Origin: Patescibacteria group bacterium
GTDB taxonomy: Bacteria; Patescibacteriota; Patescibacteriia; UBA1558; GWA2-36-10
Assembly: GCA_028718865.1 (NCBI GenBank)
Contig: JAQUKX010000002.1
Coordinates: 8,047 to 72,046 of the forward strand
Reading direction: 5' to 3'
DNA: 64,000 nt
Below, in pieces: positions 5,651-64,000 of the stretch. The position numbers and the translations under genes are program-made. Every line of letters begins with the position of its first letter. Within the stretch, counting starts at the first letter, position 1. The notes under the pieces are model-generated. The model saw nothing but the letters and a program-made list of their open reading frames with translations. It searched no databases and was not told where the DNA came from.

Positions 5651-5652
5651 TA

Positions 5653-45737: not shown

Positions 45738-45790
45738 AGCGGCCGTCAAAATGCTCCGCCGGGAGTCGCCGTTCGATTGGATTGAGTAAA
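45738..45790 (+). repeat. copy C of a partially conserved ORF remnant (.. AAVKMLRRESPFDWIE*)
   Basis: Shares gcggccgtcaaaatgct with copies A and B. Reading frame runs in from the tandem repeats. Confidence 0.5.
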
Positions 45791-46335: not shown

Positions 46336-46357
46336 AAATTTATAGATTAATTGTTAA

Positions 46358-46618
46358 TTATTTTTTAATACTAATTTTAGAAACCGCCTGCCAAAGACCG
46401 ACAAAAATGTATCCCCAGACATAAGACTGGATAGCGCCTAATATGAATCCGCCTAAATTCATTCCCGAAAAACCCAAAAACGTCAGCCTGAATAATTGCT
46501 CGTGCAGTTCTCTTTCGGTTGATCTTAAATAAAACCATAAGAAGCAAAGGATAAATAAAACGACAAAGAATAAACCCAGACGATTGGCTTGTTGTAGATA
46601 ATTTGTTTTGTTTTCCAT
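46358..46618 (-). CDS. small membrane protein (86 aa)
   Basis: 2 TM; between copB and the Met-rich protein. Confidence 0.5.
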   Translation of the reverse strand: MENKTNYLQQANRLGLFFVVLFILCFLWFYLRSTERELHEQLFRLTFLGFSGMNLGGFILGAIQSYVWGYIFVGLWQAVSKISIKK

Positions 46619-46645
46619 AAATTTTGATGGTTAAATATTAGTTAA

Positions 46646-48691: not shown

Positions 48692-48732
48692 ACTATTTAT
48701 ATTTTATCAAAATTTATAAAAAAGGCATACGT

Positions 48733-48807
48733 GCGGCTGTCAAAATGCTTAGGGGAGAAGAACCGTACAACGAGGAAGCTATGAAATGGATGGAACGGAC
48801 AAAATAA
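48733..48807 (+). repeat. copy A of the partially conserved ORF remnant (.. AAVKMLRGEEPYNEEAMKWMERTK*)
   Basis: About 88% identical over about 63 nt to copy B. Differences mostly synonymous third positions. Confidence 0.6.
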
Positions 48808-48823
48808 TAAAAAACAATACGAT

Positions 48824-49360
48824 TTACTCAATACAACAATCAATCGCTTTTTTCACCAATGTACCCAGCTTGCCCATAAATCCTTTCTTTTCCTCGTCCT
48901 GTTTGTTCAAAGCGTTTTCGTCTATTTTCTTGATATCGCCGACATTGAGCAATTTCATATTCAGCCCCCAAAACAGCGAGTAGAGATTATAGGCCTTGCC
49001 AAATAGGTCATAGGCCTCCTCCTTCCTGTCCATGCCAAGCTGTTTGGTGCCGACTTCCATCAGGCGGTAACTGGCCGCCAGCAAATGCTTGGAAATGCAC
49101 CAGACCTCTCCCTCGTATTCCTTGATGATCTTTTTAAGAAGTTCTTTTCGCATTTCGCGCACATCCTTGATCATGTCGTAGTATTCAGTTTTGCCAAGCT
49201 TCGCTCCGGTGAAGAAGAAATGCTCCTCAATGCTCACCAGATTCATGATGGCGATGCTCAAGTCCTGATCCGAAGACAAGTCCATCTTGTCCTGCTTTTT
49301 CATCTGGTCGACTTTTTCAATAAATTCGTTTAGATTTTTAATCGGGTTTTGGCTGCTCAT
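48824..49360 (-). CDS. hypothetical cytoplasmic protein (178 aa)
   Basis: ORF track only. Confidence 0.5.
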   Translation of the reverse strand: MSSQNPIKNLNEFIEKVDQMKKQDKMDLSSDQDLSIAIMNLVSIEEHFFFTGAKLGKTEYYDMIKDVREMRKELLKKIIKEYEGEVWCISKHLLAASYRLMEVGTKQLGMDRKEEAYDLFGKAYNLYSLFWGLNMKLLNVGDIKKIDENALNKQDEEKKGFMGKLGTLVKKAIDCCIE

Positions 49361-49372
49361 ATAGTTGGTTGG

Positions 49373-49888
49373 TTATTTTGTTAAGAAATAAAAGATCAGA
49401 CTCATGACGATAAGCGGGCTGACCGGCATGACGACTTTTTGAAATGGGAAGTAAGCATGGCCGCCGTTTTTCTCTTTTAAGTGATAATACCAACTTGCTC
49501 CGAACCAAAACGCGATACTTCCAACAATGATGCCGACAATCAGTTTATCAAGTCCGCAGGCGCAGATGGTGTTGAGCGGATTACCCATGATGCCCATGAA
49601 ATAAAGCGGCACGACGATCAGGAGATAGTAACCGGAAATCGTTGCCAGGGCCCGGCCGCGGAAGCGGATGTTTTTCTTGTCAAACCACGAAAGCGTCCAC
49701 GTAATCATGGATACCGTCAGGCCGCCAATCCATAGACCGGTGATGGAATCATCTATGCCTAACCATCGGGATAATCCAACACCAGCTCCCACGGCAATAG
49801 TGCAGATCGGACAGACCGCCAGAGCTTGCTTGGCAAAAAGGAGGCTTACCGCCATGACCGTCAGCGAAAATAAAATAACTTTTTTCAT
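49373..49888 (-). CDS. membrane protein with CPIC/CAC Cys motifs (start at internal ATG, MKKVILF)
   Basis: 4 TM with conserved Cys pairs. The longer track ORF has no supporting features. Confidence 0.55.
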   Translation of the reverse strand: MKKVILFSLTVMAVSLLFAKQALAVCPICTIAVGAGVGLSRWLGIDDSITGLWIGGLTVSMITWTLSWFDKKNIRFRGRALATISGYYLLIVVPLYFMGIMGNPLNTICACGLDKLIVGIIVGSIAFWFGASWYYHLKEKNGGHAYFPFQKVVMPVSPLIVMSLIFYFLTK

Positions 49889-49889
49889 A

Positions 49890-50303
49890 TTATTGTCCGT
49901 TGGTTTTTGTTTTAAAAAATTCAATAATGTCTTGATCGCCCACAAGACACTTTGAGCCGTCCCAGAGGAACGGAACGCCAATGGAGTCGGTTGGCATGCC
50001 GCACGCTCTCGCTTTGGCAACCAGCTCGTCAGCGTTATGTTTGTTGTAATATACTTCTTTTTTGGCAAAAGAAACTTTCGCCTCTACGCCGTTTTGATTG
50101 ACGTATTCCTCGACAATGGCGCAATGCGGACATCCGTCGCCGTAAAACAAAATGATGCCATCAGAAACGACTGCCGACTGATTCTCAGTATTTTCAACCG
50201 TGGCTACGGGAACGTCTGATGGTCTTTTGTTCAACAAAGCCACTATCGCAAAAACAGCAACGATTATGAATAAGATTGTCGGAGCGATGATTTTTTTGTT
50301 CAT
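49890..50303 (-). CDS. membrane-anchored thioredoxin-fold protein (CPHC active site)
   Basis: N-terminal TM; GDGCPHCA motif. Confidence 0.65.
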   Translation of the reverse strand: MNKKIIAPTILFIIVAVFAIVALLNKRPSDVPVATVENTENQSAVVSDGIILFYGDGCPHCAIVEEYVNQNGVEAKVSFAKKEVYYNKHNADELVAKARACGMPTDSIGVPFLWDGSKCLVGDQDIIEFFKTKTNGQ

Positions 50304-51016
50304 GAGAGTAAAAACTTAATTAAATATTGCGAATAATAAATTCCGGTTACCACAAATGTCGCGGCTACTGCATATCTGAACCACTTTTCGATTTTTTGAA
50401 CCGCCTGGAACGCTTTGCCAACGGCTTGCATGCTGAAAGCTATTAAAAAAGAGAAGATGATAACCGGCAGTCCGGTGCCTACGGCAAAAAGCGGCGGCAA
50501 AACAAGCCCGCCGGTTGATTTGAGCACCAGCGGAATTAAGACCCCAAAAAACAACACGCCGCTGTAAGGACAAAAGGCAAAGGCAAACAGCATGCCCAAG
50601 GCCAGCGCGCCCAGATGGCCCTTGTCCGCCAGCCATAATTTTACTTTTTCCATTGCTTGGCCGTTTCCTTTCAAATTGATTTTTATAACCCCGAACATCA
50701 CCAACCCGATGAGTATTAAAACCGGACCCAACACCTTGTCGCCCCAGCCTTGGAAAATTCTGGCAATTTGGAAAGACGAGAGCCCGAAATAAATCAGGGT
50801 CGCAAGCAAGGTATAGCTTATGCCTCTCCCCAGCGTATAAAAAAATCCGGACAGGATCGTATGCTTGGGTGTTTTTATGTCTTTGGAAATATAGGCGATG
50901 GCCGTAATGTTTGTCGCCAGAGGACAGGGGCTGATGGAAGTAAGTACTCCCAAAAGAAAGGCCGACAAAATCGGAATGTTGTAGTTGTCTATTAAAGCAT
51001 TTATAAATTCGGTCAT
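50300..51016 (-). CDS. ccdA: CcdA/DsbD-family thiol:disulfide transmembrane electron transporter
   Basis: 6 TM with conserved Cys in TM1/TM4 (ISPCPLAT). Confidence 0.75.
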   Translation of the reverse strand: MTEFINALIDNYNIPILSAFLLGVLTSISPCPLATNITAIAYISKDIKTPKHTILSGFFYTLGRGISYTLLATLIYFGLSSFQIARIFQGWGDKVLGPVLILIGLVMFGVIKINLKGNGQAMEKVKLWLADKGHLGALALGMLFAFAFCPYSGVLFFGVLIPLVLKSTGGLVLPPLFAVGTGLPVIIFSFLIAFSMQAVGKAFQAVQKIEKWFRYAVAATFVVTGIYYSQYLIKFLLS

Positions 51017-51020
51017 AGCT

Positions 51021-51527
51021 TTAGGATTTGCCGAGCAGTTTTTTCAGCTTGGCTTCAAAGTAATCCACGAATTGCTGTTCATTGGTAACCAGCCGCCAGA
51101 CAGTTACATCCTCCTCGATCTTTTCGCTTTCGGCAGTAATTGCGTTGGTATAAAGAGATGATCCGCCAGCTTGATACTTCATGACTATATCCCTATTTTC
51201 GGCCAGTTCGCCATTCACATCTTTATAAACAATAACGCCGTTCTTGTATTCCTCCGGAAATTTTTCCTTGATAGTTTTGAGGGCGTATTCGCCGACGGTA
51301 ATGCATGACCAGCATTGCTGAGTGGCATGGAAGTGGACGACCTCTATTTTCTCGGCTGTTAGAATCCTCGATGAATATCCTTGATCGGACGACACGCTCT
51401 GATTGCTTTGGCTGTTTTGATTATCCGCGACAGCTTCGGACGATCTCGGCGATCCGGAGCTGGCGATGGCCAGGACGACGAGAACCCCGATGCCGATTAT
51501 TGATCCGATAATAATTTTTTTGTTCAT
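51021..51527 (-). CDS. secreted thioredoxin-like protein (CWSC)
   Basis: Signal/TM anchor; HATQQCWSCI motif. Confidence 0.5.
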   Translation of the reverse strand: MNKKIIIGSIIGIGVLVVLAIASSGSPRSSEAVADNQNSQSNQSVSSDQGYSSRILTAEKIEVVHFHATQQCWSCITVGEYALKTIKEKFPEEYKNGVIVYKDVNGELAENRDIVMKYQAGGSSLYTNAITAESEKIEEDVTVWRLVTNEQQFVDYFEAKLKKLLGKS

Positions 51528-51531
51528 AATT

Positions 51532-52506
51532 TTATTTTACAAAGGCATTAAACAAATACCCGATTACGATTATATTTATGGTTGTTATTCCAAAAAAATA
51601 GACCAGCAGCTTTACTTTCATCACTCTCTTGAGGATGAGTGCTTCCGGCAGAGAAAGGCCGACCACCGCCATCATAAAGGCCATTGCCGTGCCAAGAGGG
51701 ATGCCTTTTTCAACAAGTGATTGCATAATCGGAATAACCCCGACAGCATTGGCATACATCGGCACAGCAACTATGGTGGCAATCGGCACGGCCAATAAAT
51801 TATCGGCGGTAATGTATTGTTCAAAAAATCCGGCTGGGACATAGCCGTGAATGAGCGCGCCAACGCCGATACCCAAAAGCACGTACGGAGTTATTTTCTT
51901 TGTTAAAGCCCATCCTTCTCGCCAGAATAATTTCAATAAGTCCCGGAAAGGTAGTTTATTTTTGGTAGTTTTGTTTTTCCGGCTCTTTATCTGCCAGACA
52001 TAATCAGCTACATATTTTTCCAGTTTGAGTTTGCCCAAAATAAAACCGCCGATTACGCCTAGCAGAATAGCCGCGACAACATACAGGATTGTTATTTTCC
52101 AACCAAACAATCCGGCAAACAGGACAACCGCGACTTGGTTCACGAGCGGCGAGGTGATGAGAAATGATAAGGTCACGCCAAGCGGAATACCGGTTTCCAG
52201 AAAACCAATAAAAAGAGGAATGGACGAGCAGGAGCAGAATGGCGTGATCGTGCCAAAAGCGGCGGCCAGCAAATAATCCAACCCATACCATTTCCTCGAA
52301 GCCAGAAAGTCGCGGAGCTTTTCAACCGGCAAGTAATGTCTGACAATGGCCATGAAATAGTTAATGACCAAAAGTAAGATAAGAATTTTCAGGGAATCGT
52401 AAATAAAAAAGTTAGCCGACGATCCAAGACGGGATTCCGGACCTATTTTAATAAGTCCATACGTCAGCCAATCGGCTAATAGTTGAAGTGGGTAAAAGAT
52501 GTCCAT
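51532..52506 (-). CDS. permease (DUF318-like)
   Basis: 8+ TM; typical partner of redox-active disulfide protein 2 and ArsR. Confidence 0.7.
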   Translation of the reverse strand: MDIFYPLQLLADWLTYGLIKIGPESRLGSSANFFIYDSLKILILLLVINYFMAIVRHYLPVEKLRDFLASRKWYGLDYLLAAAFGTITPFCSCSSIPLFIGFLETGIPLGVTLSFLITSPLVNQVAVVLFAGLFGWKITILYVVAAILLGVIGGFILGKLKLEKYVADYVWQIKSRKNKTTKNKLPFRDLLKLFWREGWALTKKITPYVLLGIGVGALIHGYVPAGFFEQYITADNLLAVPIATIVAVPMYANAVGVIPIMQSLVEKGIPLGTAMAFMMAVVGLSLPEALILKRVMKVKLLVYFFGITTINIIVIGYLFNAFVK

Positions 52507-52512
52507 ATCCTT

Positions 52513-52764
52513 TTATTTCGCGTTTTCTTTTATCAGTTGCTTAATTTTTTCAATGTCAGGCGTAAACCCGGTCATGGCCGGTTTGCCATTCACAGCCAGA
52601 ACCGGACTCGACATCACTCCCATCTCGACGATTTTTTGAATGTCGGTGATGTATTCCACTTCCACGCCGAGATTCATTTCGGCGACCGCTTCTTTCGTCA
52701 GTTCATACAGTTTTTTACAAGTCGAGCATCCCGATCCCAAGACTTGAATTTTGACGCTATTCAT
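52513..52764 (-). CDS. redox-active disulfide protein 2 (small thioredoxin-fold, CSTC)
   Basis: 83 aa, GSGCSTCKKL. Confidence 0.7.
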   Translation of the reverse strand: MNSVKIQVLGSGCSTCKKLYELTKEAVAEMNLGVEVEYITDIQKIVEMGVMSSPVLAVNGKPAMTGFTPDIEKIKQLIKENAK

Positions 52765-53071
52765 AGGATTGTAAAAATTTATTTAATAATGAATTGAATT
52801 TTGACATTTCTTTTTTGTTAATCCAATAAATCACCCTGAGCCCTTCTTTCCGGGAATCAATAAGACCTGCGTCTTTAAGCACTTTCAGGTGATGAGAGGC
52901 CAGGTTTTGAGGAATATCCAAATCCTGCCAGATATCGCAAACACAGCGTTCCCCGCCCTTAAGAACGCAAAGAATTTTCAGCCGGTTATCTTCGGCGATA
53001 ATTTTTAGAAGCTCGGCCGTTTGGCTTACTTCCTGACGGTTATTTTTGTCTGTGCAGCATTTTGGCTTCAT
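52757..53071 (-). CDS. arsR: ArsR/SmtB-family metalloregulator
   Basis: wHTH with CVCD metal site (ERCVCDIWQ). Confidence 0.8.
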   Translation of the reverse strand: MKPKCCTDKNNRQEVSQTAELLKIIAEDNRLKILCVLKGGERCVCDIWQDLDIPQNLASHHLKVLKDAGLIDSRKEGLRVIYWINKKEMSKFNSLLNKFLQSYE

Positions 53072-53142
53072 ATCCTTATTACATCAATTTATATTGATAT
53101 AGTAGCAAAAAGAAAAAGAGCCGTAAAGCCCTTCTGAAAAAC

Positions 53143-53220
53143 GCGGCCGTTAAAATGTTCCGGGGAGAAGAACCATACAACGAGGAAGCCATGAGGTGGA
53201 TGGAAAAAGTCGAACATTAA
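53143..53220 (+). repeat. copy B of the partially conserved ORF remnant (.. AAVKMFRGEEPYNEEAMRWMEKVEH*)
   Basis: See copy A. In-frame TGA about 50 nt upstream, so it is a remnant. Confidence 0.6.
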
Positions 53221-53324
53221 GCGTGGTGCGTATCTTACCTGCTCTCTGCTGTAAGATAAATTTATTTCGCACAATACAAAATTAAGTAAACCGAACCGGG
53301 TCGTGTTTACTTAACAAAGCCTCC

Positions 53325-53651
53325 TTATCCAAACACGAACACTTTATCAGATTCTTCAACCACCTTGAGCAAATCGGTCATGGTAGAGACGGGACAGACT
53401 CCGGCTTCCTTTTTGCCGCGAATTTCCAAACATGTACCACAAGCATACAGCTTTCCTTTCAATTCCTTGTATTCCGCAACTTTCTTTGAGATGTCGAAGT
53501 GTTCCGTGTCGGCAATAGTATCAAGCTCGGATCCCTCGCTCATCAAAAATATAGTCACATCATGACTGGCTTTAAGCGAAGTGATGCCGAAACGAAATGT
53601 GTTCCAAATATGTTCCGGGTTGTTGGATTGTAAGATTATACCGAACTTCAT
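53325..53651 (-). CDS. DsrE/DsrF-like sulfur-relay family protein
   Basis: 108 aa; conserved Cys (YACGTC), DsrE-like fold pattern. Confidence 0.65.
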   Translation of the reverse strand: MKFGIILQSNNPEHIWNTFRFGITSLKASHDVTIFLMSEGSELDTIADTEHFDISKKVAEYKELKGKLYACGTCLEIRGKKEAGVCPVSTMTDLLKVVEESDKVFVFG

Positions 53652-53688
53652 AAGTCTATTGTAGCAAAAAAGATAAAATTTAAAAATA

Positions 53689-54408
53689 TCACGGCCAAAG
53701 AATTAACTTAATGCCTATGGCGAGAAGAAAAATGGCAATAATGACACGGAACTTATTCTGCGGTATCCGGTCAACGATCCTTTTTGCGATCTGCGCTCCG
53801 AAAAAAGAGACTGGAATAAAAAGAATCAGTCCGTACCACAACTCTCTCGGCAATGTCGCGCCTCCGGTGAAATAGGTAATAATACGAGTAGAGTCTACCA
53901 ACAGCCCAATCGCTCCGGCGGTAGCGATGAAAACGGCTTTAGGCAAGTCAAAAGCAGAAAGAAACGCACTCCGGATTGCGCCACCAATGCCGAACATCCC
54001 GGCAAAGAATCCCGACAAAGCTCCGCCGGATATTGCTGTGATATTCCCGGCCGGTATTTTGAACTTTGACTGAAAGGCCACGAACAAGGCATATCCGGCT
54101 AGAAACGCGCCGAGGACACGAAGCAGTATTTCCTCATTTACACCGAGCGAGATATATGCGCCAAGATAACTTGTTGCAAGACCAACTAAACCGAAGAGTA
54201 CGAGTAGCCGAACATTAAATCCTTTGCGGAACAGCGAGACTTTCCATACATCGCCGAACCAATGGATAATCGCCACTAAAAATATCGCCTCGACCGGCGG
54301 AAAGAATATCACCAACACCGGAATCATGAGCGTGGATGTTCCGAAGCCAGTAATTGTGCCGATGGTAGCGGCTACGAGTGTTAAGATTGAGATGTATAAA
54401 ATTTCCAT
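53689..54408 (-). CDS. TauE/SafE-family (sulfite/anion exporter, DUF81) membrane protein
   Basis: Two 4-TM repeats, Gly-rich TM motifs. Confidence 0.75.
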   Translation of the reverse strand: MEILYISILTLVAATIGTITGFGTSTLMIPVLVIFFPPVEAIFLVAIIHWFGDVWKVSLFRKGFNVRLLVLFGLVGLATSYLGAYISLGVNEEILLRVLGAFLAGYALFVAFQSKFKIPAGNITAISGGALSGFFAGMFGIGGAIRSAFLSAFDLPKAVFIATAGAIGLLVDSTRIITYFTGGATLPRELWYGLILFIPVSFFGAQIAKRIVDRIPQNKFRVIIAIFLLAIGIKLILWP

Positions 54409-54411
54409 AGA

Positions 54412-54717
54412 TTATTTTTGTGTATCCCGATGTTCCAAGAGTTTCTCGGCTGGGGAGATACCGCCAAGAATTTCATGTGGGAAGTAATTCCAAGCATCGG
54501 TGACCAGCTCAAGCACGTTGCTTAATTCTGAAGCGTCTCCGCCGCGATCAAACATAGCCACTACTTTCATCATGCCGTCGTTATCTTCTTCGTTGTAAAT
54601 GGCGTCCCGGACATGATCTAAGGTAAACTCACTCCCTGTTTCTTTTAGCATTTCCGCGAGCTCCTGCTCGATCTCTTTTCTCCGTTCAAAAATTTGTTGT
54701 TTAGATTCGATTTCCAT
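54412..54717 (-). CDS. hypothetical acidic protein (101 aa)
   Basis: ORF track only. Confidence 0.45.
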   Translation of the reverse strand: MEIESKQQIFERRKEIEQELAEMLKETGSEFTLDHVRDAIYNEEDNDGMMKVVAMFDRGGDASELSNVLELVTDAWNYFPHEILGGISPAEKLLEHRDTQK

Positions 54718-54759: not shown

Positions 54760-55626
54760 TTAAACTTTTACTGGGCTAAGCTCTTTTGGAAAAATCATTA
54801 CCTCTCTGCCGATTTTAGATTCATATGCGTTGTGTTGAATAGCAAAACCCCTCAGGCGCATTGATGCATATAAATTTTTAATATACGGCACATCATCGTA
54901 AGTCATGATCCATTTTTTGAATGATGATTCTCCCAAAAATTCTGATAGATTTTCGTGATCTTTGTTGCTGTAATGGTTTAGATATAGTGACTGTCCTTTC
55001 TGGAAATATGGCGGATCAAGAAATATAAAATGTTGATTTTTATTTTTGCGTCCTTCCATTTTTTTTAACAATTCTATTCCGTCCAGATTGTATACTTCAA
55101 TTTTATTACGAAATTCTTTAACCTTTTCCAATCGGTCAATGATAGTCTGTTTGGTAAAGCGTGCGTTTACTTTCCATGTTCCGGATTGATCAATTCCTCC
55201 TATCGGTCCGCCATTCATGATCCCTGAACGGTTTGTTCTGTTTAAAAATAGAGTGGCAAATGCAAGTTTACGGTCGCTTTTTGTAGATGTATAAATTGTT
55301 TTTTGTCTTCTCCATTCCTCTATGGTAACCTCGGTCCGCTTTATCTTACCGATTAAATAATCGGCATCAGAAACAGCTATTTTCCAAAAAGTAAAAATTG
55401 CTTTATCAAGATCATTGATAACAATTTTTTCTACTTTTTTGGCAAATAGTAGAGCAAGCGAAGCGCCCGCTCCTCCCGCATATGGTTCCACCAAAACAAC
55501 TTTTTCTTTTTGATCGAAGTTTTTCTCTATTGCCTCAAGCAGTTTATTGGCAAGACGGGTCTTCCCGCCAGGGTAACGCAGAGGGCTGGAGAAACCCGAT
55601 ATTTTTTTGTCAGTTTCTTTTTTCAT
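54760..55626 (-). CDS. Dam-like (D12-class) N6-adenine DNA methyltransferase
   Basis: Motif I region PLRYPGGK; motif IV DPPY (FLDPPYF). Confidence 0.8.
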   Translation of the reverse strand: MKKETDKKISGFSSPLRYPGGKTRLANKLLEAIEKNFDQKEKVVLVEPYAGGAGASLALLFAKKVEKIVINDLDKAIFTFWKIAVSDADYLIGKIKRTEVTIEEWRRQKTIYTSTKSDRKLAFATLFLNRTNRSGIMNGGPIGGIDQSGTWKVNARFTKQTIIDRLEKVKEFRNKIEVYNLDGIELLKKMEGRKNKNQHFIFLDPPYFQKGQSLYLNHYSNKDHENLSEFLGESSFKKWIMTYDDVPYIKNLYASMRLRGFAIQHNAYESKIGREVMIFPKELSPVKV

Positions 55627-56972
55627 TTTTTTGCGTGCGTAATGTTCAACATCGCTCCGATGATAATCGACATTCCTACAGTTTGCTCAAAATTTGCAGA
55701 ATTGGCATAGTTATGCGCACCGGATTGCAATAACTGAATCAAACCCTTTGCGTTAATAATACTGTTGTTCGCCAGGGTTGTCTTCTGGTCTTGTGTCAAT
55801 TGTTTTTTTGCATTTTCGTAATTGGCATTCACGTAATCCGCTATTCCTTTTGTTTTCGGAGTAGCAGATTCGATGAGTAATCGTAATGACATTCTGATCA
55901 ATGCAGGAAAATTTTTTGATAATTTGTCCGTATTTTTTGAGTAAAAGTCATATAGGTCCAAAACGTCCATATAGATATTATTTGCGTCTCCTTTTTTCAG
56001 CACCAAATCCTGTCCGAATAGTGCTTGCACTTTATTCTTTTCTCTCGCTGTTTTCCTTGGCGCAGGCAGTTCTGCTTTCTTCTTTTCTACCTCGGTACTC
56101 TTCTTGGTAACAGAAAAACTGGGGTCTATCTCTGCAAAGACATTTTCAACTAGCCAATCTTGAGTAGCTTGTGCTGGTACCTTGTGCGGATCTGTAATAT
56201 AAGGAACCAAGAGCTTTAGTTTTTTGTCTGATTCATTTCGGTTTGTAAATGTTATATCCCCTTTATTATTGGTTGAGTAATCCAAAAGTTTCTTTCCATT
56301 TGTACTTAGAATCAAACGGTCTATTTTGTTGAAACCAGACTTGAGTAATTCTTCCTCATCTTTGTCTGTCCTGATTTGTTCTAAAATCTGTTCGTAGAAA
56401 AATAGTTTCTCAAGCTCTTTCTTAAAGAGCGTAGGCGTTACCCCATACTCGGAAGAAGCAGAATCAATATCATACTCCCCGGAATCTATCAAATTTCTGT
56501 ACATTCTGAGTTTTTGTAATACTTGCCAAGGTTTTAGAAGCTGATTGACATGAATATCCCAAATTTCTTTCTCTGCTTCCTTGCGAGAGGGGGCAATGGT
56601 AATCTTTACATTCTTGAGTTCTTGTTTATTAGTAATCTTATTTAGTTCCTCTAGTTCCTTTTTATCCCGAGCATTTGGTGCAAGCTCGGGTTTAAGTAAA
56701 AGTTGGCATGCTGCTAACCGACGATTTCCGTCCAAGACTATTGTCCGTCCGTTTTCTTTACAGACAATCGCAACGGCACTTCTGTGGTAGCCATTATTTG
56801 CAATATTTCTCGCGATTCTCAAAATATCCTCTTTATCCAAAAGATAGTTCCTAACTTGAGTAATATCGTTTTGATCTCTGACATGTTTTGGTAGGCGTGG
56901 ATTTTGCAAATCCAATTCTAAAGTTGCAACATCAACAATGTCATCCTTCCAATTGTTTCTTGTTTTTGCCAT
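55623..56972 (-). CDS. ParB/Srx-fold (ParB-like nuclease domain) protein with about 350-aa uncharacterised C-terminal extension
   Basis: N-terminal QNPRLPK ... VLDGNRRLAA. 4-nt overlap (ATGA) with the Dam-like gene. Confidence 0.6.
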   Translation of the reverse strand: MAKTRNNWKDDIVDVATLELDLQNPRLPKHVRDQNDITQVRNYLLDKEDILRIARNIANNGYHRSAVAIVCKENGRTIVLDGNRRLAACQLLLKPELAPNARDKKELEELNKITNKQELKNVKITIAPSRKEAEKEIWDIHVNQLLKPWQVLQKLRMYRNLIDSGEYDIDSASSEYGVTPTLFKKELEKLFFYEQILEQIRTDKDEEELLKSGFNKIDRLILSTNGKKLLDYSTNNKGDITFTNRNESDKKLKLLVPYITDPHKVPAQATQDWLVENVFAEIDPSFSVTKKSTEVEKKKAELPAPRKTAREKNKVQALFGQDLVLKKGDANNIYMDVLDLYDFYSKNTDKLSKNFPALIRMSLRLLIESATPKTKGIADYVNANYENAKKQLTQDQKTTLANNSIINAKGLIQLLQSGAHNYANSANFEQTVGMSIIIGAMLNITHAKK

Positions 56973-57072
56973 ATACGATTATTTATATTATAGCGAGTTT
57001 TTGAATATTTTTCGATAGCATAAATTTATTTTTACTCCGGAAACTTACCGCCCGAAATATCAAAAGCTCGTA

Positions 57073-58236
57073 TTACCGATTACCTTTTGCCCGATTATGG
57101 GTTTTACACAGCATCTCACAATTTTTTACATCAGTAGCACCACCCTTGCTCCAAGCCGAAACATGATCGGCGTCCATATCTGCCAAAGTCCAAATTTTAT
57201 CCTTGTTTGCATCATGACCAATCGCGCAATGTGAGCAGTTCGAAATACCTTTCTTTTTTGCGGCGGCAGTTTGAGCCTCATACACCGAACGTTTTGTTGA
57301 GTCTTCAAATACTCGAACTTCAAGCAATTTTGTTTCTACTTCTCCACCTAAAACATATTCGAAAATACCTTTACGACTTTTCACGAAACCATCGGCATAG
57401 AGTTTCTGAACCTTAGCAGAAACTGTTGCGGGGTTATATTTTTTCTTGTGGTACGTCTGATACAGCCTGTTCCATTCAAGACCCTTCATTTCACTTTCAA
57501 CGTCTGTGAAGGTAGTCGAAACCCAATCGATAACAGTCTCGAAATGCTTTTTTAGTTCAGTGATGTTTTTGTCGTTACGATGTTTACTCATGTAGCTATC
57601 GATTTCTCCATCAGAGACCCAATCTAAAGCCCGTTCTAAATATGCTTGACGTTTGATATCACCTGCGATGTAGGTACTCCATTTCTGAATGTTGGTATTT
57701 TGACTATTACTAAATTCTTCGCGAGCGCGAGTGACAAATGGCCCAGAATATACTGCATTAAGAATCTCTTGTTCGGTTAATGGTACTCCAGCGATATTAA
57801 TAGTCTTAAACCAATCCTTGATCTCAGGCTCGTCACCTTTACACAAATACACTAACAATCTGGCGTCCATTATTTGCTCGCGCTGACTAGTAGCCATACC
57901 ACTGTAATATTGTTCATGACCATTCTTATCTTTGACAGCAAACTTGCCTGTCACGAACCGACCGATGCTAGTGATGCGTTGCTGTCCATCGAGCACTTCA
58001 AATTTATCAGTACCAACTTGGTTAAAATAAATTAAACCTATTGGGTAACCTTTCAAAATTGAGTCAATTACGGCAACATCACGTTTGCCATCAGCGTAAA
58101 TGTAGTTACGCTGATACTCTGGCTGAATAGTTAGTTTACCCGAGAGACCAAACAACCCTTTTCCTTCGAGTTCGTTATAGACGAAGCCGTCGCAAACTTC
58201 TTTTATCGTGATGTCATTTTTTAGTGTGGTTTTCAT
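57073..58236 (-). CDS. DUF262 (DGQQR) + C-terminal HNH nuclease fusion (GmrSD-like modification-dependent restriction family)
   Basis: QPEYQRNY and LDGQQR motifs. C-terminal CSHC...DADHV...N...CKTHN HNH. Confidence 0.8.
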
Positions 58237-58238
58237 AA

Positions 58239-59429
58239 TTATTTTTTCTTGTGCTTAATTAAGACTCTCTGATAAACTTTTTCTCTCAACCCATCGCGGA
58301 GTACTACGCCACTAGCATTCAAATCGTACACACCTTTCTTACCAAACTTATCTAAATATGCTTGCTTGCACTCCGCAGAGGTGTAGACTTTTGTTTTTTG
58401 CTTGTATAAATCCTCATTTTCACACATTCCCACAATTTCAAACTGCTCAGGGGAATACTTATCAAGAAAACTAATTGGGACACCCATGATGTTTTTGTAA
58501 TCACTCGGAATATTTTTTACCAACGAAACTTCAATTGCGTTATAGTTCTCGTATTTTTCAAACTCCTTGTTTGTTGAGAACTTAATAACATCCGATTTTT
58601 TCATCAAAGGAATCGGTTGATGAAGTCGTCCGTGATCAAGGTTCGTGAACCAACGAACACCTTGAACTCTTGTTATGTATACTTTTTTACCTTTTTCATC
58701 GGTTTTAATTTCACGAACTTGATCTAGGTTTGCAACAGCTTCTGGAATCTCATAAAACATTGCACCGCCATTAACTCTTGCGTTGTTTCCGAGCCATACC
58801 TTATTTTCTTTTATCATTGGAAAAACTTCCTTATAGGTTATTGCATTGAGATTACCAATGATTAGAAAATGTTTTTTATGATCAAAAAGTTGCGTAATAT
58901 ATTCACGAAATAAACTAAATGGAGGATTGGTGACTACGATGTCAGATTGTTTGAGCAACTCGACACACTCGTCGCTTCTAAAGTCGCCATCACCCTCAAG
59001 CGGAGTCCATTCGTTGTTTTTGTTAGTTCTAAGCTGTTGGGCAATATCTTCTAGTGTAAAAGAGCCGTCGCCGTCCACATCACCAACTTCGTTGATAATA
59101 AATTTATTAGCGACAATTTTTGGTCGCCCTTTGACAGGTTCGAGGGTAATATCATCACCAAATAGTCCTAGTTGAGTATTTGCAACTGGTGACGGTTTGT
59201 AGCTAGTTGCAATAAGTCTTTTCAACCCTAATCTTTTAAAATTTAGGACGAAGTAGCGAAAGAAATTGCTTTCAAATGGGTCGTCGCAGTTGCTGTAAAC
59301 CACCTTACCTTTAAAAGTATTTGGGTCATACTCAAGATAAGACTCGACTTCTTTTTGGATATCTAAAAATTGAGTATAAAATTCATCATTTTTTGCCTTC
59401 TTTGCATTTGTAAGATTTTTGTTTGCCAT
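58239..59429 (-). CDS. N6-adenine DNA methyltransferase (NPPF motif IV)
   Basis: N-terminal DEFYT; VVTNPPFS catalytic motif. Stop overlaps the start of the DUF262-HNH gene. Confidence 0.75.
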
Positions 59430-59578
59430 AAATTTATTTTTCGCTCTCAGCTCGAGCTTTTAACAAAAATATAGTTTCGGACTTCAATTTCGCCCGAGCC
59501 CAGTCTTTTTTGGCTGTTTTGATAGTCATTTGATGGTTTGTCATGTAGTGAAAATAAAATATCGGGAAAGTGCCCAAT

Positions 59579-61054
59579 TTAAGAGGAGGAAATGCCCTTA
59601 TCTGTTTTATTATCAACCCCCCTTGAAAATAAACCCTTAGGAACCTCCTGGCCGGGCTTCCGGTAATAACTGTCCTTTTTAGCCTTGCCAATTTTTTCCA
59701 ACAAGCCCTTATCAACCCAACCACGTAATAACCGGGACATTTTCAAAACATCACTAACTCCGGTTATCTCCCGTGCCTTTTTATTGATAATGCGGTAATT
59801 TTCATCAAGATATTTACTGACGGTATCCCAGTATTCAATCTTATGCATATTGAGAAGTAAGAGTAGAACTGAATTCGGTCTTAGTGTTGGAGGAAAAAAT
59901 AATGGCTCGTATAGATTTTGTTCTTTCATAACCTTAAACATACGATCAACACCTTCGCCGATGTCAAGATTAGGTGCCGTCTGGAAACGGTTCAACGTTC
60001 GTAGGATTAAAGGATTACGAGCAAAACGCTCGGCCCTGATATTTTCAACAGTGATATGGCCGGGGTAAGTTCCGGGACTCTCAACTTCAACACGATCATC
60101 AAAAAACCGCACCTGAATGTCATCTTGCACAAAATAATTCCTATGAATAACCGCATTGGTTATTGCTTCTTGAAATGCCCATTCCGGTATCAAAAAGGTT
60201 GGATTGAAAGAAGCTCCGCTTAATTTGGGAGGTGAACTTTTTACAATTCCCCGAAAATACTCAATAGCTTGTTCAATTTGCTTCATCAGAGGCCCTTCGA
60301 TGGTGAATGGCCGAGTGACAAAGTTTGGCTTACCGGTGTAAGTCGGTTTTGTTCCGTAATAATGAGAAACTTTTATTCCGCATTTACTTGTTAGGGCGAC
60401 TGAGGGGTTCTTCCCAAAAAGCAAAAGTCCGGCTTTAGTCAGCTCGTATTTGCCATTACCACCGACGGCCAGGCCGTTGTCTTTCAAAAACTGCCAATCA
60501 TCTAAGCCTGTGCTCGAGGTATCCTTTTTATATTGAGCGAGGAGATCGTGGTCTAAATTTTCAAGGGAAGTAGTGCCGGATTTTTCGCTCTCGTACTTAA
60601 TTGCACCTTTTTCGTATTTAAGGCGCATTATTTCTGTCGAACCAATCTTTACATTTTGTCTCCCTTTTCTGACAAAAGTATCCCCTCGTTTAAGTGAATG
60701 AACATCATTACTCTTTTTGATATTGAGTACCAAGAGCTTGTCCGCCTGTCCTTGAGCATTCGTGATATCAAGCTCGAATTTTCCCCACAGTATAAGCGGC
60801 GGCTCAATTTCTTTATCAATTAGCTTAAGAAAATCGGAAACATTATCTGGATTTTCGCTGATTCCTAGAAGCCGTTTGTCCCCTTGGGCTTTAGCCGGAT
60901 CTTCCAAACCGACTACTATAAAACCACCGTCCGCATTAGCGAAACCGACTACTGTTTCCAAAAAGTCGGCCGGTCTAATCGCGGCTCGTTTACATTCAAA
61001 AGTTTGCCACTCTTGGGTATCCAGAAATATTTTTACTATGTCTTTATCTTCCAT
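59579..61054 (-). CDS. Schlafen/AlbA_2 DNA-binding domain + HATPase_c_4 ATPase protein
   Basis: N-terminal FANADGGFIVVG pattern; C-terminal AITNAVIHRNY...VESPG pattern. Confidence 0.75.
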   Translation of the reverse strand: MEDKDIVKIFLDTQEWQTFECKRAAIRPADFLETVVGFANADGGFIVVGLEDPAKAQGDKRLLGISENPDNVSDFLKLIDKEIEPPLILWGKFELDITNAQGQADKLLVLNIKKSNDVHSLKRGDTFVRKGRQNVKIGSTEIMRLKYEKGAIKYESEKSGTTSLENLDHDLLAQYKKDTSSTGLDDWQFLKDNGLAVGGNGKYELTKAGLLLFGKNPSVALTSKCGIKVSHYYGTKPTYTGKPNFVTRPFTIEGPLMKQIEQAIEYFRGIVKSSPPKLSGASFNPTFLIPEWAFQEAITNAVIHRNYFVQDDIQVRFFDDRVEVESPGTYPGHITVENIRAERFARNPLILRTLNRFQTAPNLDIGEGVDRMFKVMKEQNLYEPLFFPPTLRPNSVLLLLLNMHKIEYWDTVSKYLDENYRIINKKAREITGVSDVLKMSRLLRGWVDKGLLEKIGKAKKDSYYRKPGQEVPKGLFSRGVDNKTDKGISSS

Positions 61055-61058
61055 ATGA

Positions 61059-61253
61059 TTACTTTTTATGTTTCTTTTTTACATTACTCGTTTCTTCAAG
61101 AAAGGCGTTGAGATCAGACTGTTTGATTCTCCAGACTCCGAGCTTGGAAGCCTTTAATCGACCAGCCTCAATATACCGAGTAACTGTGCGAGTATGTACT
61201 CGCAATATGTCGGCGATTTCCTCAATAGTGAAAAGTTTTTCGATGTCGTTCAT
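61059..61253 (-). CDS. excisionase/AlpA-family HTH DNA-binding protein (64 aa)
   Basis: FTIEEIADILRVHTRTVTRYIEAGRL HTH. 4 nt upstream of the ATPase gene. Confidence 0.7.
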   Translation of the reverse strand: MNDIEKLFTIEEIADILRVHTRTVTRYIEAGRLKASKLGVWRIKQSDLNAFLEETSNVKKKHKK

Positions 61254-61334
61254 AAAATTGCTTTAGGCGTTGATATCATTTTATCGCTTCTGCTTTCCGT
61301 TGTCAAAATCGCCGTCTTTTGTCATAATGTCTTT

Positions 61335-61520
61335 ATGGAGACTAAATACTCAAAAATGGAAGTGCTCGAGCGACCGAAGTTGGTCAATCGGCCGACATGT
61401 AAAACCTTCAAGCTCGAGGGTGGGTGTTGGGATTGTGGCCATACGAAATTCCGCTATTACAATTCCGTATTCGGTAAACGATATTACCAATGTGAGAAGT
61501 GTCGGGCGATCAATCATTAG
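61335..61520 (+). CDS. small zinc-ribbon protein (CxxC...CxxC), divergent from the Xis-like gene
   Basis: ATG in frame with track ORF 61194..61520. CWDCGH...CEKC. No clear SD. Confidence 0.45.
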   Translation: METKYSKMEVLERPKLVNRPTCKTFKLEGGCWDCGHTKFRYYNSVFGKRYYQCEKCRAINH

Positions 61521-61588
61521 ATTTTACTATATCAGCCGGTTGATATAGTAAACGGCTTTACTGTCTCAGTTGAGTGATATAGTAAACT
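61521..61588. promoter_or_regulatory. three copies of a 13-bp site TGATATAGTAAAC (one inverted, forming a perfect 12-bp-arm palindrome; two direct)
   Basis: tttactatatca-gccggt-tgatatagtaaa, then gtgatatagtaaac about 30 nt later, immediately after the zinc-ribbon stop. Confidence 0.5.
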
Positions 61589-61964
61589 GGAAAGGGCGTT
61601 TATCACCCCTTCTAGTTAAAAAATGAACTCCGTCAACTTTCTGTCAGTTTTTGTCAGACAAATTATTGTCCACAGCAAACAGCTCTTGCGGCGTTTTTCC
61701 GGATCAGCTAAAATACATACATTAGAGTTAGTTAGTCTGACGGCGACTGAATTTTCAGTCTAAACGCGACGGGACTACGACTTCTGTTATCAAACCTTTC
61801 CGCTTTGTTGTGGATCGGAACTTGGTGACAAGAGTCGTGGTCCCTTTTTCGTTTCTAACCGGCTCTGCAAATTAATTTTTCCCTCTGAGGCTAAGGTGCC
61901 CAGATTAGACTGACGAATTTGATTAGACAGATAAAGGCTAGCTCCCAGCAGGGGCCAGCCTTTT

Positions 61965-62165
61965 ATGTTGCCCCAGGAAGCAATCCAAGAATTTAAAACA
62001 CTGTATGAAAAACGCTACGGCGTGAAGCTCTCCGATGAGGAGGCGTCTTTGCGCGCAAACAATCTTTTCAAACTCTACAAGATTACCTACATGGGTGAGC
62101 CTTCTATTGATGACTTCAAAGAAAAAGTAGTGAAAAGCCATGACCTCAACACCAACCACAATTAG
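61965..62165 (+). CDS. small hypothetical protein (66 aa)
   Basis: ORF track; follows a roughly 340-bp non-coding stretch. Confidence 0.4.
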   Translation: MLPQEAIQEFKTLYEKRYGVKLSDEEASLRANNLFKLYKITYMGEPSIDDFKEKVVKSHDLNTNHN

Positions 62166-62448
62166 CGAAATACAGTTCTACCCAGTTAAACCCCAGGACG
62201 GCCTCCTTGGGTTTGTTTCGTTTGTGCTGGACGGGAAATTCTGGATGGGATCGGTGGCCGTATTCTCCCGGCGCGAGGGAGGATACCGGCTTGTATATCC
62301 GACACGCAAAGTGGCCGGACAAAACGTGAATATTTTTCATCCGATAAACCACGAAGTCGGCGGCCTGGTCGAGGCAGCCGTCAGTGAAAAAGTAGCTGAA
62401 ATATTTAGTGAATCATATGAACAAACCGAACCGGACAACACGTGGTAA
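62140..62448 (+). CDS. spoVG: SpoVG-family nucleic-acid-binding protein
   Basis: ISEIQF...V.L..KFWMGSVAVF...HPIN pattern matches B. subtilis SpoVG along its length. Confidence 0.75.
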   Translation: MTSTPTTISEIQFYPVKPQDGLLGFVSFVLDGKFWMGSVAVFSRREGGYRLVYPTRKVAGQNVNIFHPINHEVGGLVEAAVSEKVAEIFSESYEQTEPDNTW

Positions 62449-62848
62449 AAGCTTAAATTTCTTTCCAGCTCCTCACCTGATTTTCGATGACAACAGGCTG
62501 AAGAATTCGCTCACGCATGCCGAGCGAGATTTTCTTATGGTGATCTGTCATCTCTCAAACCGCTACGCGAATGCAGACGGCTGGTTTTGGCATACGGACA
62601 GATTGTTTACGACACGCGAAGATAAAGAACGCGGGTTCGCTTCATTCGGGTTCAGCAGATCAACATGTCGACGCGTAAGAAAGAAGCTTGCCGGTCTTGG
62701 GCTTATAGAAACCAGACCGGGAACATCGGAACGTGGCCGGTGGGCCGGAACTTTATATCGTCTTAACCCAAAACTTCTCCACTCTACCAGGGTTCATAAT
62801 GAAGCACGGTCAGGCGTCTTAGAGAATCACGGCCCGGGTCCACCATGA
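62408..62848 (+). CDS. putative replication initiator / winged-helix DNA-binding protein
   Basis: Basic wHTH-like protein immediately upstream of iteron-like repeats. Start uncertain; overlaps the spoVG-like end. Confidence 0.5.
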   Translation: MNHMNKPNRTTRGKSLNFFPAPHLIFDDNRLKNSLTHAERDFLMVICHLSNRYANADGWFWHTDRLFTTREDKERGFASFGFSRSTCRRVRKKLAGLGLIETRPGTSERGRWAGTLYRLNPKLLHSTRVHNEARSGVLENHGPGPP

Positions 62849-62929
62849 AGCACTTAGTAATAAAGATTGAGTAAGAAAGAGATAATAATAAAGCTTAAAT
62901 AAAGCGAGATAGCTCGTCAAAAATTAAAA

Positions 62930-63090
62930 AATAGGGGTTGGGCAAAGCTTGGGTGAAACTTGGGCAGATTTCAGGGATACCATAGCGACCAAAGGCGACC
63001 AAAATTCAGTAGTTAGGGGTTGGATAAAACTTGGATGATTTTCAGCAAAACCGACTGGGGCAGAACTGGGGTGAAACTGGGGCAGAAATT
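62930..63090 (+). repeat. iteron-like direct repeats (about 33 bp x3: GGGCARARCTGGGGTGAAACTGGGGCAGAWWT) plus GCGACCAAAG sub-repeats
   Basis: Three imperfect copies read directly at about 62932-62975, 63013-63048 and 63054-63090. Confidence 0.6.
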
Positions 63091-63204
63091 GATACCCATT
63101 CTCTAAATAAAGGCGTAAAATGTAAGTAATCAAGTGTTTGACTTCTTTCGACCTTAGGACCATGTTGTGCTTAGGTCGACAAAATAATTAATGAAAACAA
63201 TCAT

Positions 63205-64000
63205 ATGACAAACAAAGCCAAAATAACCACCGTAATCGCCCTTGTAGCGGTCTTTGGGGCAGGGTTCGGGGTTTATCACCTTCTTGGGAACAAAGCACCG
63301 CGTGAGGCCGTAAAAGCGGACCTTGCGACAATTAAAACATTTGAGCAATGCTCGGATGCCGGTTACCCGATCGTTAAGCATTATCCGGATCAGTGTAAAA
63401 CTCCGGACGGCAGAATATTCGCTGACCAGAATCCACCGGCTAAAAGCGAACTGGATAAAGCCGAGCAAACAATTCGGACGTTCATGGGAGAGCCAAAACT
63501 GGAGTTGCAATACACCGGGCAGAATAATCATCCCGCGAATTTTGCCGTCTTAAGCAACGTTAAACAAAACGATGGCGGATTTACGGCCGACAATCCTGAA
63601 GAATGGGATAGACCGGTCTACATCTTCCAGCAAGCGGATTACATCAACGATCGCTGTGAAGTTTATCAATATCAGGTAACGCAAAAAACGAATCAGGTCG
63701 TGGAAATCGGAATTGTCTATCCGATAGAAAGAAACGCTACGACGCCAGGCAACTGTCCCGATAACGGATCACTGGAAACTCCTCTGAAGACCAAAGCCGA
63801 AATAGAACAAATCGCTTTCGCTTATTTTAGCAGAGACCCGGAACATACGAAATTCATGCTTCGCTCCGACATCCAGCCCCAATACATCTCAAGTAAGCTA
63901 GGTGCAGCAAACCCAGCTGCCAACGAATGGCAATGGGAAGACAAAAACGTCTCACTTCCGGATGGGCTGACCGGCGATCCGTGGCAACACCCGATTGCCA
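63205..64000 (+). CDS. membrane-anchored secreted protein, 3'-partial (runs off the window)
   Basis: ATG at about 63205 with N-terminal TM (ITTVIALVAVFGAGFGVY); frame open to nt 64000. Absent from the ORF track because it is unterminated. Confidence 0.5.
   Translation, partial: MTNKAKITTVIALVAVFGAGFGVYHLLGNKAPREAVKADLATIKTFEQCSDAGYPIVKHYPDQCKTPDGRIFADQNPPAKSELDKAEQTIRTFMGEPKLELQYTGQNNHPANFAVLSNVKQNDGGFTADNPEEWDRPVYIFQQADYINDRCEVYQYQVTQKTNQVVEIGIVYPIERNATTPGNCPDNGSLETPLKTKAEIEQIAFAYFSRDPEHTKFMLRSDIQPQYISSKLGAANPAANEWQWEDKNVSLPDGLTGDPWQHPIA

Follow-up and report, generated by a model that had tools for sequence, protein, structure and literature searches.

Candidate packaging-site mimics in the control core of a serine-recombinase element family of Patescibacteria

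Phage satellites such as the phage-inducible chromosomal islands (PICIs), with the Staphylococcus aureus pathogenicity islands (SaPIs), and P4 are packaged through either their own small-terminase gene (terS) or the packaging site of a helper phage (SaPIs, SaPIbov5, P4). Here we analyzed 64,000 nucleotides of contig JAQUKX010000002.1 from a Patescibacteria group bacterium; this whole stretch is hereafter called the window. Positions 61254-63100 almost certainly represent the conserved control core of an integrative serine-recombinase element that belongs to a family spread among Patescibacteria. We put at about 60% the probability that they are the control and packaging core of a PICI-like phage satellite with several packaging-site mimics and a cargo of defense and metal-resistance genes.

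Like the PICIs and SaPIs, including the terS-carrying SaPIs and SaPIbov5 with its cos site, and like P4 with the cos site of P2, the element is an island of 10-20 kb with an integrase at one end (seen here in the relatives), divergent regulators and cargo. Likewise, virion genes are lacking, as profile searches of the proteins of the window element matched no capsid, portal or tail families, and there is either an own terS, which sibling elements carry, or a putative copy of a helper's packaging site, namely an array with sets identical or nearly identical to repeats of phage terS genes, for which we infer a packaging role. In other respects the element differs from PICIs. The integrase of the family is a large serine recombinase and not a tyrosine recombinase; profile searches found no primase, helicase or polymerase in the conserved core, and hence nothing like the primase-helicase (pri-rep) module of PICIs; several different packaging-site copies are present and not just one, packaging being predicted here from sequence; the core genes (p66, SpoVG-like and winged helix) are unrelated to PICI genes; and the hosts belong to the Candidate Phyla Radiation (CPR).

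Tycheposons of Prochlorococcus are cargo-carrying integrative elements that target tRNA genes and pile up in tandem beside them; some are PICI-like with a terS, and a minority carry large serine recombinases (bioRxiv 10.1101/2020.12.28.424599). They are defined by a specific tyrosine-recombinase lineage together with hallmark genes, and their partial tRNA copies measure about 40 nt (bioRxiv 10.1101/2020.12.28.424599). The family described here shares with them hosts with streamlined genomes, tRNA targeting and tandem accretion. However, its integrase is a serine recombinase and so falls outside the defining lineage, it replaces about 5 nt of the tRNA gene, its recombinase faces outward, and the recombinase open reading frame (ORF) crosses the attachment (att) site. 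Staphylococcal cassette chromosome (SCC) islands such as SCCmec, with their Ccr recombinases, are likewise cargo islands that use a large serine recombinase and the 3' end of a conserved housekeeping gene. Their target is rlmH and not a tRNA gene, however, SCC islands are without phage packaging features, and the recombinases of our family match the NCBIfam models of CcrA/B/C weakly (84 versus a cut-off of 900 bits).

The small terminase of headful phages (P22, SPP1, Sf6) recognizes a pac site within or beside its own gene, and the cosB region of lambda holds three R repeats; in our case, too, a short repeated DNA site lies in or by the small-terminase gene. Unlike in P22, SPP1, Sf6 and lambda, the 3x11-bp site appears to have been copied out of terS, with several kinds concatenated on another element, and its binding by TerS is a prediction. 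Iteron replicons (lambda O/ori, pSC101, P1 RepA) likewise combine a winged-helix gene, an AT-rich stretch and direct repeats, but here the repeats comprise at least four different words of unrelated, apparently terS-derived sequences, and a single, small winged-helix domain makes up the protein.

The combination of a CPR host, a serine recombinase acting at a tRNA 3' end, an integrase (int) ORF across attP, a new set of core genes and a structured leader is new, and so above all is the array of several different terS-derived sites. Our literature search found no phage satellite or serine-recombinase island described in CPR bacteria. Little is known about gene exchange among these ultra-small, mostly uncultured bacteria, and the family would be a vehicle that moves defense and metal-resistance genes between distant CPR lineages.

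The repeat array and its resemblance to terS genes

Downstream of the winged-helix gene, a first-pass annotation of the window had described three 33-bp iteron-like repeats. The repeats are real, but they are more structured, being made up of sets (A to D) of 11-bp units, and they are not iterons:

62934-63090, + strand: array of 3x11-bp repeat sets, candidate packaging (pac- or cosB-like) sites, from sequence and comparison with terS
62938-62970: set A, TTGGGCAAAGC / TTGGGTGAAAC / TTGGGCAGATT
62985-63003: set B, GCGACCAAAG twice
63020-63041: set C, TTGGATAAAAC / TTGGATGATTT
63054-63087: set D, ACTGGGGCAGA / ACTGGGGTGAA / ACTGGGGCAGA

Triplets of this type were absent from 500 shuffles, and segments of the same size in the rest of the window held about 0.01 of them on average. 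A single array can contain 4-8 different words, which do not follow the divergence of the winged-helix protein. Otherwise similar elements carry 1 to about 8 sets in varying order, and sets are conserved between elements whose remaining sequence differs by 25%.

The slot that holds the array in the window is occupied in L012, L014 and L015 by a gene encoding a TerS homolog of 184-202 aa (phrog_6299, E 7e-7 and 6e-9), and the sibling elements L035 and L036 also have terS there. In L014 and L015 the winged-helix gene is kept and terS replaces the array. We identified 38 homologs of this terS, including P0116, P0125 and P0123, which lie directly upstream of a gene for a GpA-type terminase large subunit on contigs of 31-45 kb with other phage-type genes. 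In six of the seven terS genes examined, a three-copy direct repeat with a period of about 11 nt is found in a hypervariable segment after a conserved W(E/D); that of L035 is less regular. The repeat words differ by lineage (CAACCAAAA, GGCGACYRAAA, CGGAYRAAAT, CTTGGGYRAAWC and CTTCAG), and GGCGACCAAAGGCGACTGAAAGGCGACC is the candidate DNA target of the L033-type TerS. Since the 11-nt period is out of codon frame, the repeat points to a site at the DNA level and not to a protein repeat.

We compared the translated arrays with 35 TerS proteins. Each set fits the hypervariable segment of a different TerS type, giving about 5-6 types, and all tblastn hits of TerS on the arrays (58/58) are on the + strand. 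At the nucleotide level, the terS repeat of phage L033 is identical to the arrays of L002 and L009 over 29/29 nt and to window positions 62985-62999 over 15/15, and that of element L036 matches the window at 62938-62968 (29/31) and at 63058-63087 (26/30). Similarly, the terS repeat of phage L029 matches L018 (26/28) and that of element L035 matches L016 (23/24). In the whole window, the array matches to terS repeats are the only significant ones. The phage loci carry the repeats and no homolog of the winged-helix, p66 or SpoVG-like proteins, and comparison of the winged-helix protein with TerS profiles showed the two to be unrelated. Overall, these sequence comparisons indicate that the array sets very probably derive from terS-internal repeats. 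The plasmid or phage origin layout proposed in the first-pass annotation could thus not be maintained, as the repeats appear to be copies of terS-internal triple repeats that also occur in phages without a winged-helix homolog. The layout is better suited to a phage satellite than to the origin of a plasmid or temperate phage, and the comparisons together rule out Rep iterons as the main explanation of the repeats.

Boundaries, recombinase and spread of the element family

The window resembles a bacterial chromosome, with two class II aminoacyl-tRNA synthetases, AcrB, an FeFe hydrogenase, three tRNAs and a GC content of about 0.40. All genes through 61253 are on the - strand and all after it on the + strand, and this switch and the minimum of the cumulative GC skew both lie at about 61 kb. 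A chromosomal replication origin at this position was rejected, because the element itself contains the switch and because host genes past its right end return to the - strand in relatives. The element spans from 45673 to an estimated 65.7 kb, about 20 kb; L001 and L004 each measure 12.4 kb. Its left end and the genes that it shares with relatives are as follows:

45573-45680, + strand: about four tandem 27-bp copies of CCATGGCGGTTTATGGCTCTGCTATAAA on the host side, directly left of attL (sequence)
45673-45789, + strand: attL and left end of the element, core TGGCT(CC) followed by the P' arm (pattern match, alignment)
61965-62165, + strand: p66, 66-aa core gene encoding the most conserved core protein
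62140-62448, + strand: SpoVG-like gene (PF04026), overlapping both neighbors
62417-62848, + strand: winged-helix gene, called Rep-like in the first-pass annotation, 143 aa, pI 10.8 (AlphaFold model, searches)
62849-62932, + strand: AT-rich spacer, 75% A+T, with a hairpin at 62904-62917 (sequence)
63138-63166, + strand: promoter-like element TTGACT-17-CATGTT before the p290-integrase operon, kept in nearly all loci
63205-64000, + strand: p290, membrane-anchored protein of about 290 aa, cut by the window end (comparison with relatives)

The winged-helix protein has 18 close homologs, all from Patescibacteria (CPR) or metagenomes, and a scan of one genome per species gave 20 loci, which fall in Vogelbacteria, Parcubacteria, WWE3, Paceibacterota, Kuenenbacteria, Saccharibacteria and Staskawiczbacteria. 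In total, more than 20 Patescibacteria loci share the core of p66, SpoVG-like and winged-helix genes. Almost all loci show the order p66, SpoVG-like gene, winged-helix gene, gene for the membrane protein of about 290 aa and large serine recombinase gene, while the leftward genes on the - strand vary by locus and mostly encode defense systems. The first-pass annotation had recognized a mobile-element core, had seen no integrase in the window and had suggested that the element may continue past 64 kb. The shared synteny of core and recombinase and the attL at 45673 bear this out, and at least 18 related loci place a large serine recombinase gene after what is the truncated last gene of the window. 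In these relatives the recombinase, whose ORF is intact in 16 loci, has the three domains PF00239 (Resolvase), PF07508 (Recombinase) and PF13408 (Zn_ribbon_recom), and the att sites are short and devoid of long direct repeats, as in other large-serine-recombinase elements; the window copy is cut off.

At the nucleotide level, the core of the window shares about 89-90% identity with those of L004, L005 and L007, whereas the host tRNA-Asn genes of L004 and L007 are 72% identical. This difference shows the family to be horizontally mobile. Some members occur in metagenome-assembled genomes of Saccharibacteria, cultivated strains of which exist, and experiments may be feasible if a cultured Saccharibacteria strain carries the element. 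In the complete WWE3 genome of L006 (CP006914.1), positions 925-10,900 hold a decayed copy, which retains attL and the core genes but has lost the array, p290 and most of the recombinase gene; this copy is probably immobile.

The left end was recognized first in L001, and a pattern search then matched 45673 of the window, L004 and L006. The homology begins precisely at TGGCTCC and extends over about 115 nt of the alignment. Positions 45673-45789 form an in-frame extension of the recombinase ORF by 38 codons (WLRAVRELRTVILSG...SPFDWIE, then stop), found at 975-1091 in L001, from 772 in L004 and from 925 in L006; according to a count from the alignment, about half of the codons that differ between L001 and the window are synonymous. 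Since the left-end stretch continues the recombinase ORF in frame, the int gene spans attP, the predicted junction of which reads ...AAATCCCAYR-TGGCTCC-GAGCTGTGCGAGAACTTAGAAC. A first guess of the P' arm, taken from L005, is not present in the window; the correct arm came from L001. Integration exchanges the last 38 recombinase codons for a tail of 5-14 aa read antisense from the tRNA, and the integrated tails end with a TAG of the T-arm region or with a TAA formed by the Asn anticodon loop.

At the right end, a complete tRNA-Asn(GTT) on the - strand abuts or overlaps the recombinase 3' end in 11 loci; a divergent clade uses tRNA-Gln as target. In L003 (13235-13488), L006 (10952-11232) and L023 (13390-13664) a group I intron interrupts the anticodon loop of the target tRNA-Asn, which ARAGORN therefore misses. 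The conserved element sequence terminates in ...AAATCCCAYR, immediately before TGGCTCC, and the junctions share TGGCT(CC) only; the family integrates at the last few bases (xGCCA) of tRNA-Asn. As the tRNA beyond the junction co-varies with its own 5' half, the element replaces only these last bases (about 5 nt).

Several further observations concern the ends. Each 27-bp copy of CCATGGCGGTTTATGGCTCTGCTATAAA at 45573-45680 contains the attB-like TTATGGCTC, and these tandem repeats could have arisen by slippage or be scars left by successive rounds of integration and excision. In L001-L023, a 6-7 bp palindrome lies in the last recombinase codons, 10-30 nt before the TGGCT junction (e.g., 13320-13340 in L002). 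It varies with compensatory changes (GCCGAG..CTCGGC, GCCACG..CGTGGC, GCGGAG..CTCCGC) and may be a structure or a binding site by the crossover. Tandem accretion by the tRNA was seen as well, with a different serine-recombinase element between the right end of the family and the tRNA (L019 3752-8272; L005 13154-20432; L026-L028). One of the accreted elements has a rolling-circle Rep (REP_ORF2-G2P/RepSA), and others carry a reverse transcriptase and MmeI-type cargo.

Packaging by helper phages and alternative readings

By analogy with the pac sites of P22, SPP1 and Sf6, we take the triple repeats as candidate TerS recognition sites, and on the strength of this analogy we lean toward a role of the array sets in packaging, that is, in hitch-hiking. 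The terminase of a helper phage, or the TerS of a sibling satellite, would recognize a set and package the excised island into phage capsids, and several different sets would give one island several possible helpers. The leader and its terminator, described below, would keep the core off until a signal arrives, probably phage infection; read-through of the terminator would then yield the p66, SpoVG-like and winged-helix proteins, followed by expression of the p290-integrase operon from the element at 63138-63166. A more tentative proposal is that the array is a multi-specificity packaging adaptor in which each 33-bp set mimics the terS site of another CPR phage or satellite lineage, and that the differing integrated and circular forms of the recombinase constitute a directionality switch. 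If this were true, packaging of an island devoid of terS by several unrelated helpers would explain the spread between distant CPR lineages. Two ideas of wider interest are thereby raised: that a satellite widens its helper range by collecting packaging sites, and that an att-spanning recombinase gene senses the integrated or excised state. Furthermore, the terS-internal repeats suggest that the packaging site of a CPR phage group is located inside terS.

Several points weigh against a satellite packaged in this way. The binding of TerS to the triple repeat is presumed from the general rule for pac sites. Sets A and D match terS genes seen so far in sibling elements and not in phages, and set C is so far without a terS counterpart. 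The phage identity of L029, L031 and L033 is based on terS-terL and a few phage-type genes, with no capsid genes recognized. In IMG/VR, neither relatives of the winged-helix protein nor close TerS relatives were found, and set D had no exact copy there. The right end of the window copy, including its integrase, lies outside the 64 kb seen. In addition, two scans of JGI metagenome contigs for the attP junction gave 0 hits, and no circular or attP-only contig was found; the P-O-P' junction proteins P0078 and P0092 from metagenomes adjoin decayed integrase fragments, which indicates that these junctions stem from tandem arrays rather than circles.

The resemblance of the sets to terS would be the same if the array were an anti-phage decoy that titrates or misdirects phage TerS and so hinders phage packaging, with no role in transfer of the island. 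The cargo, dominated by defense systems, fits such a function, and interference with helper packaging is known from PICI-type elements. However, a decoy leaves unexplained the complete terS in the slot of the siblings and the spread, at about 90% identity, between distant hosts, and we regard it as a rather unlikely sole function; decoy and hitch-hiking functions are compatible and not mutually exclusive. Unlikely, too, is a plasmid- or phage-type replicon, in which a winged-helix Rep would bind the repeats as iterons by an AT-rich unwinding stretch and replicate the excised circle. Residues 30-122 of the winged-helix protein show weak similarity to the N-terminal region of PHROG "replication initiation protein" families (E 8e-6 and 7e-5), Foldseek against BFVD returned phage replication and DnaD-like proteins, again weakly (E ~1e-3), the stretch of 75% A+T precedes the array, and a DnaA-box-like 9-mer is found near the core promoter in 14 loci (the window and 13 others). 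On the other hand, the AlphaFold model of the 143-aa protein is a single winged helix in which a second winged helix or a helicase-loader domain is absent. Its Foldseek matches in PDB are of generic MarR/PadR/TFE types, and a PDB sequence search was likewise uninformative. An exhaustive profile search yielded a small orphan family of 61 representatives, among which there was no informative domain fusion or replication domain, and plasmid and phage records contained no homolog of the winged-helix or SpoVG-like proteins. The Rep-like label of the first-pass annotation is therefore not retained. Moreover, the sets very probably come from within terS ORFs belonging to several lineages and are also found in phages devoid of the winged-helix protein, the 4-8 words per array do not track its divergence, and L014 and L015 have the winged-helix gene with terS in place of the array. 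That the protein is a replication initiator acting on the array is improbable; more generally, it could be a regulator or an initiator.

The position of the array between the winged-helix gene and the promoter-like element at 63138-63166, together with its 11-bp phasing and A-rich spacers, would also suit a regulatory array, whose phased A-tract repeats would curve the DNA or serve as head-to-tail sites for the winged-helix protein and so control the p290-integrase promoter. OmpR/PhoB-type proteins bind head-to-tail on 11-bp direct repeats. We nevertheless find this quite improbable, because similar elements differ in the order and number (1 to about 8) of their sets and because sets lie inside coding phage terS genes, which have no such promoter context. 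Finally, the sets might be functionless debris, the decayed remains of terS genes once present in a slot that terS still occupies in L012, L014, L015, L035 and L036. Yet of each terS lineage only the repeat segment of about 33 bp survives, several lineages are aligned in one orientation (58/58 hits on the + strand), identity to phage sites reaches 29/29 nt with the flanking terS sequence gone, and the sets stay conserved between elements 25% divergent elsewhere, all of which makes debris highly improbable. We thus favor the reading of the core as part of a PICI-like satellite.

Control region, core proteins and cargo

The remaining features of the element are the cargo blocks, the divergent promoter region and the control region of the core operon:

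45799-54717, - strand: cargo block 1, metal and sulfur genes: P-type ATPase, DsbD_2, ArsP permease, ArsR, DsrE, TauE and others (Pfam)
54760-61054, - strand: cargo block 2, defense genes (Pfam, PADLOC)
54760-55626 and 55623-56972, - strand: PD-Lambda-5 pair, Dam-type methyltransferase and ParB-like protein (Pfam, PADLOC)
57073-58236 and 58239-59429, - strand: type II restriction-modification system, GmrSD_N+HNH restriction endonuclease and EcoRI-type methyltransferase (Pfam, PADLOC)
59579-61054, - strand: Schlafen/AlbA_2-HATPase_c_4 protein (Pfam, PADLOC)
61059-61253, - strand: HTH_17/excisionase-family gene, 64 aa, first gene of the leftward cargo operon (PF12728, E 3e-16; TIGR01764)
61278-61328, both strands: divergent sigma70-type promoters with overlapping -35 regions (11/12 and 10/12 matches)
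61335-61520, + strand: 61-aa Zn-ribbon ORF (CxxC...CxxC; CWDC...CEKC; sequence)
61523-61586, no strand assigned: two 30-bp palindromes (12-6-12), 34 bp apart (sequence; right half-sites invariant)
61638-61714, + strand: control region of the core operon (sequence)
61722-61964, + strand: structured leader RNA of about 240 nt (folding, consensus structure)

The metal and sulfur block (46-54 kb) has a GC content of 0.43-0.45 versus about 0.39 in the flanks, and its genes are mobile cargo and not host genes, as they lie inside the element boundaries set by the position of attL.

In the control region, direct TTGTCAG repeats (61638-61657) and a DnaA-box-like TTGTCCACA (61666-61674) precede the promoter TTGCGG-17-TAAAAT (61686-61714), which is kept in all loci (e.g., TTGACG-17-TATAAT in L003). 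The DnaA-box-like 9-mer keeps a fixed spot just upstream of the -35 of this promoter in the 14 loci; no cluster of DnaA boxes was found, only this single conserved site by the core promoter. The box is perfect (TTATCCACA) in L001, L021 and L022, and perfect boxes also occur after the winged-helix gene in L016-L018.

The leader is present in all 20 aligned loci. It comprises a P1 hairpin (61745-61760), an intrinsic terminator made of a hairpin with a stem of about 25 bp (61771-61844) and a U-run (61845-61849), and a hairpin (61933-61963) that abuts the ATG of p66. Its fold z-scores are -6.8 and -6.1, and the consensus structure shows compensatory changes, with 96% of cells paired versus 27-54% in slid controls. 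Searches of the leader and the array against Rfam gave nothing at gathering or permissive thresholds (best E-value 1, permissive).

Family searches with p66, including Pfam, PHROG, NCBIfam and PADLOC, were without match. Co-evolution with the recombinase is a little stronger for p66 (r 0.80) than for the other core proteins (r 0.66-0.68), a difference too weak to assign it the role of directionality factor on this basis; p66 or the HTH_17 protein may still be considered as a candidate for such a factor. The SpoVG-like gene was already recognized in the first-pass annotation. Its product matches 78 of the 82 model positions of PF04026 (E 1e-6, 29.2 bits versus a cut-off of 29.6), and NCBIfam NF009749 at E 4.5e-5 (23 bits versus 108 for the equivalog); judged from these scores, it is a homolog and not an ortholog of the septation protein. 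It could bind the leader RNA. An exact-sequence search with the SpoVG-like protein of the window matched no record.

The HTH_17 and Zn-ribbon genes had been described as divergent, with the restriction-modification cluster driven from the region between them, and this is in good agreement with the promoter pair, in which TTGACA-17-TAAAAT reads leftward (61306->61278, - strand) and TTGTCA-17-tgCATAAT reads rightward (61300->61328, + strand). The HTH_17 domain also agrees with the original designation Xis/AlpA-like, but the nearest named relatives are the mad1-type helix-turn-helix leaders of defense operons (PADLOC mad1, E 2e-10). HTH_17 genes precede differing defense cassettes in about 10 related loci. 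They are also present on phage contigs (L029 12526-14886, L033 12440-12613): that of L029 heads a restriction-modification cassette (DNA_methylase and an NgoFVII-type restriction endonuclease), and that of L033 precedes a YceG-like gene. For the 61-aa Zn-ribbon ORF, family searches gave no match; it is conserved at 80-95% in L002/L013, L003, L012 and L022.

Past this ORF, a triplicated 13-bp motif with one inverted and two direct copies had been reported. The three exact copies of TGATATAGTAAA are indeed there (61523-61534, - strand; 61541-61552 and 61575-61586, + strand), and there are no further exact copies in the 64 kb, but a fourth, degenerate half-site (61557-61568, - strand) had been overlooked, and because of it the unit is a pair of 30-bp palindromes. 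The palindromes are present also in L002/L013, L003, L007 and L012. HTH_17 is found in 5/5 of the palindrome loci and the Zn-ribbon gene in 4/5, L007 having kept the palindromes with the Zn-ribbon gene absent, and this co-occurrence does not single out a binder. An RNA hairpin or terminator was rejected, as changes in the left arms are uncompensated and a U-run is absent after the palindromes; they are therefore putative protein sites. Just past them, at 61586-61625, a hairpin ACTGGAAAGGG...CCCCTTCTAGTT is followed by an A-run. It shows compensatory changes in L003, L007 and L012, and on either strand its orientation is unsuited to a terminator.

Downstream of the array, the element at 63138-63166, the -10 of which is weak, is the putative promoter of the p290-integrase operon. 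An inverted repeat, TCGACCTTAG...CTTAGGTCGA (63149-63179), overlaps its spacer and -10, has a covarying A/G-T/C pair in L002 (TCGGCC...GGCCGA) and may be an operator. The p290 protein itself is highly variable between elements. Its C-terminal 190-215 aa are 36-43% identical to a protein encoded near terL on phage contigs (L031 9271-10503; L029 11482-12420), where the p290-like gene lies two genes past terL and adjoins a YceG/MltG-like gene.

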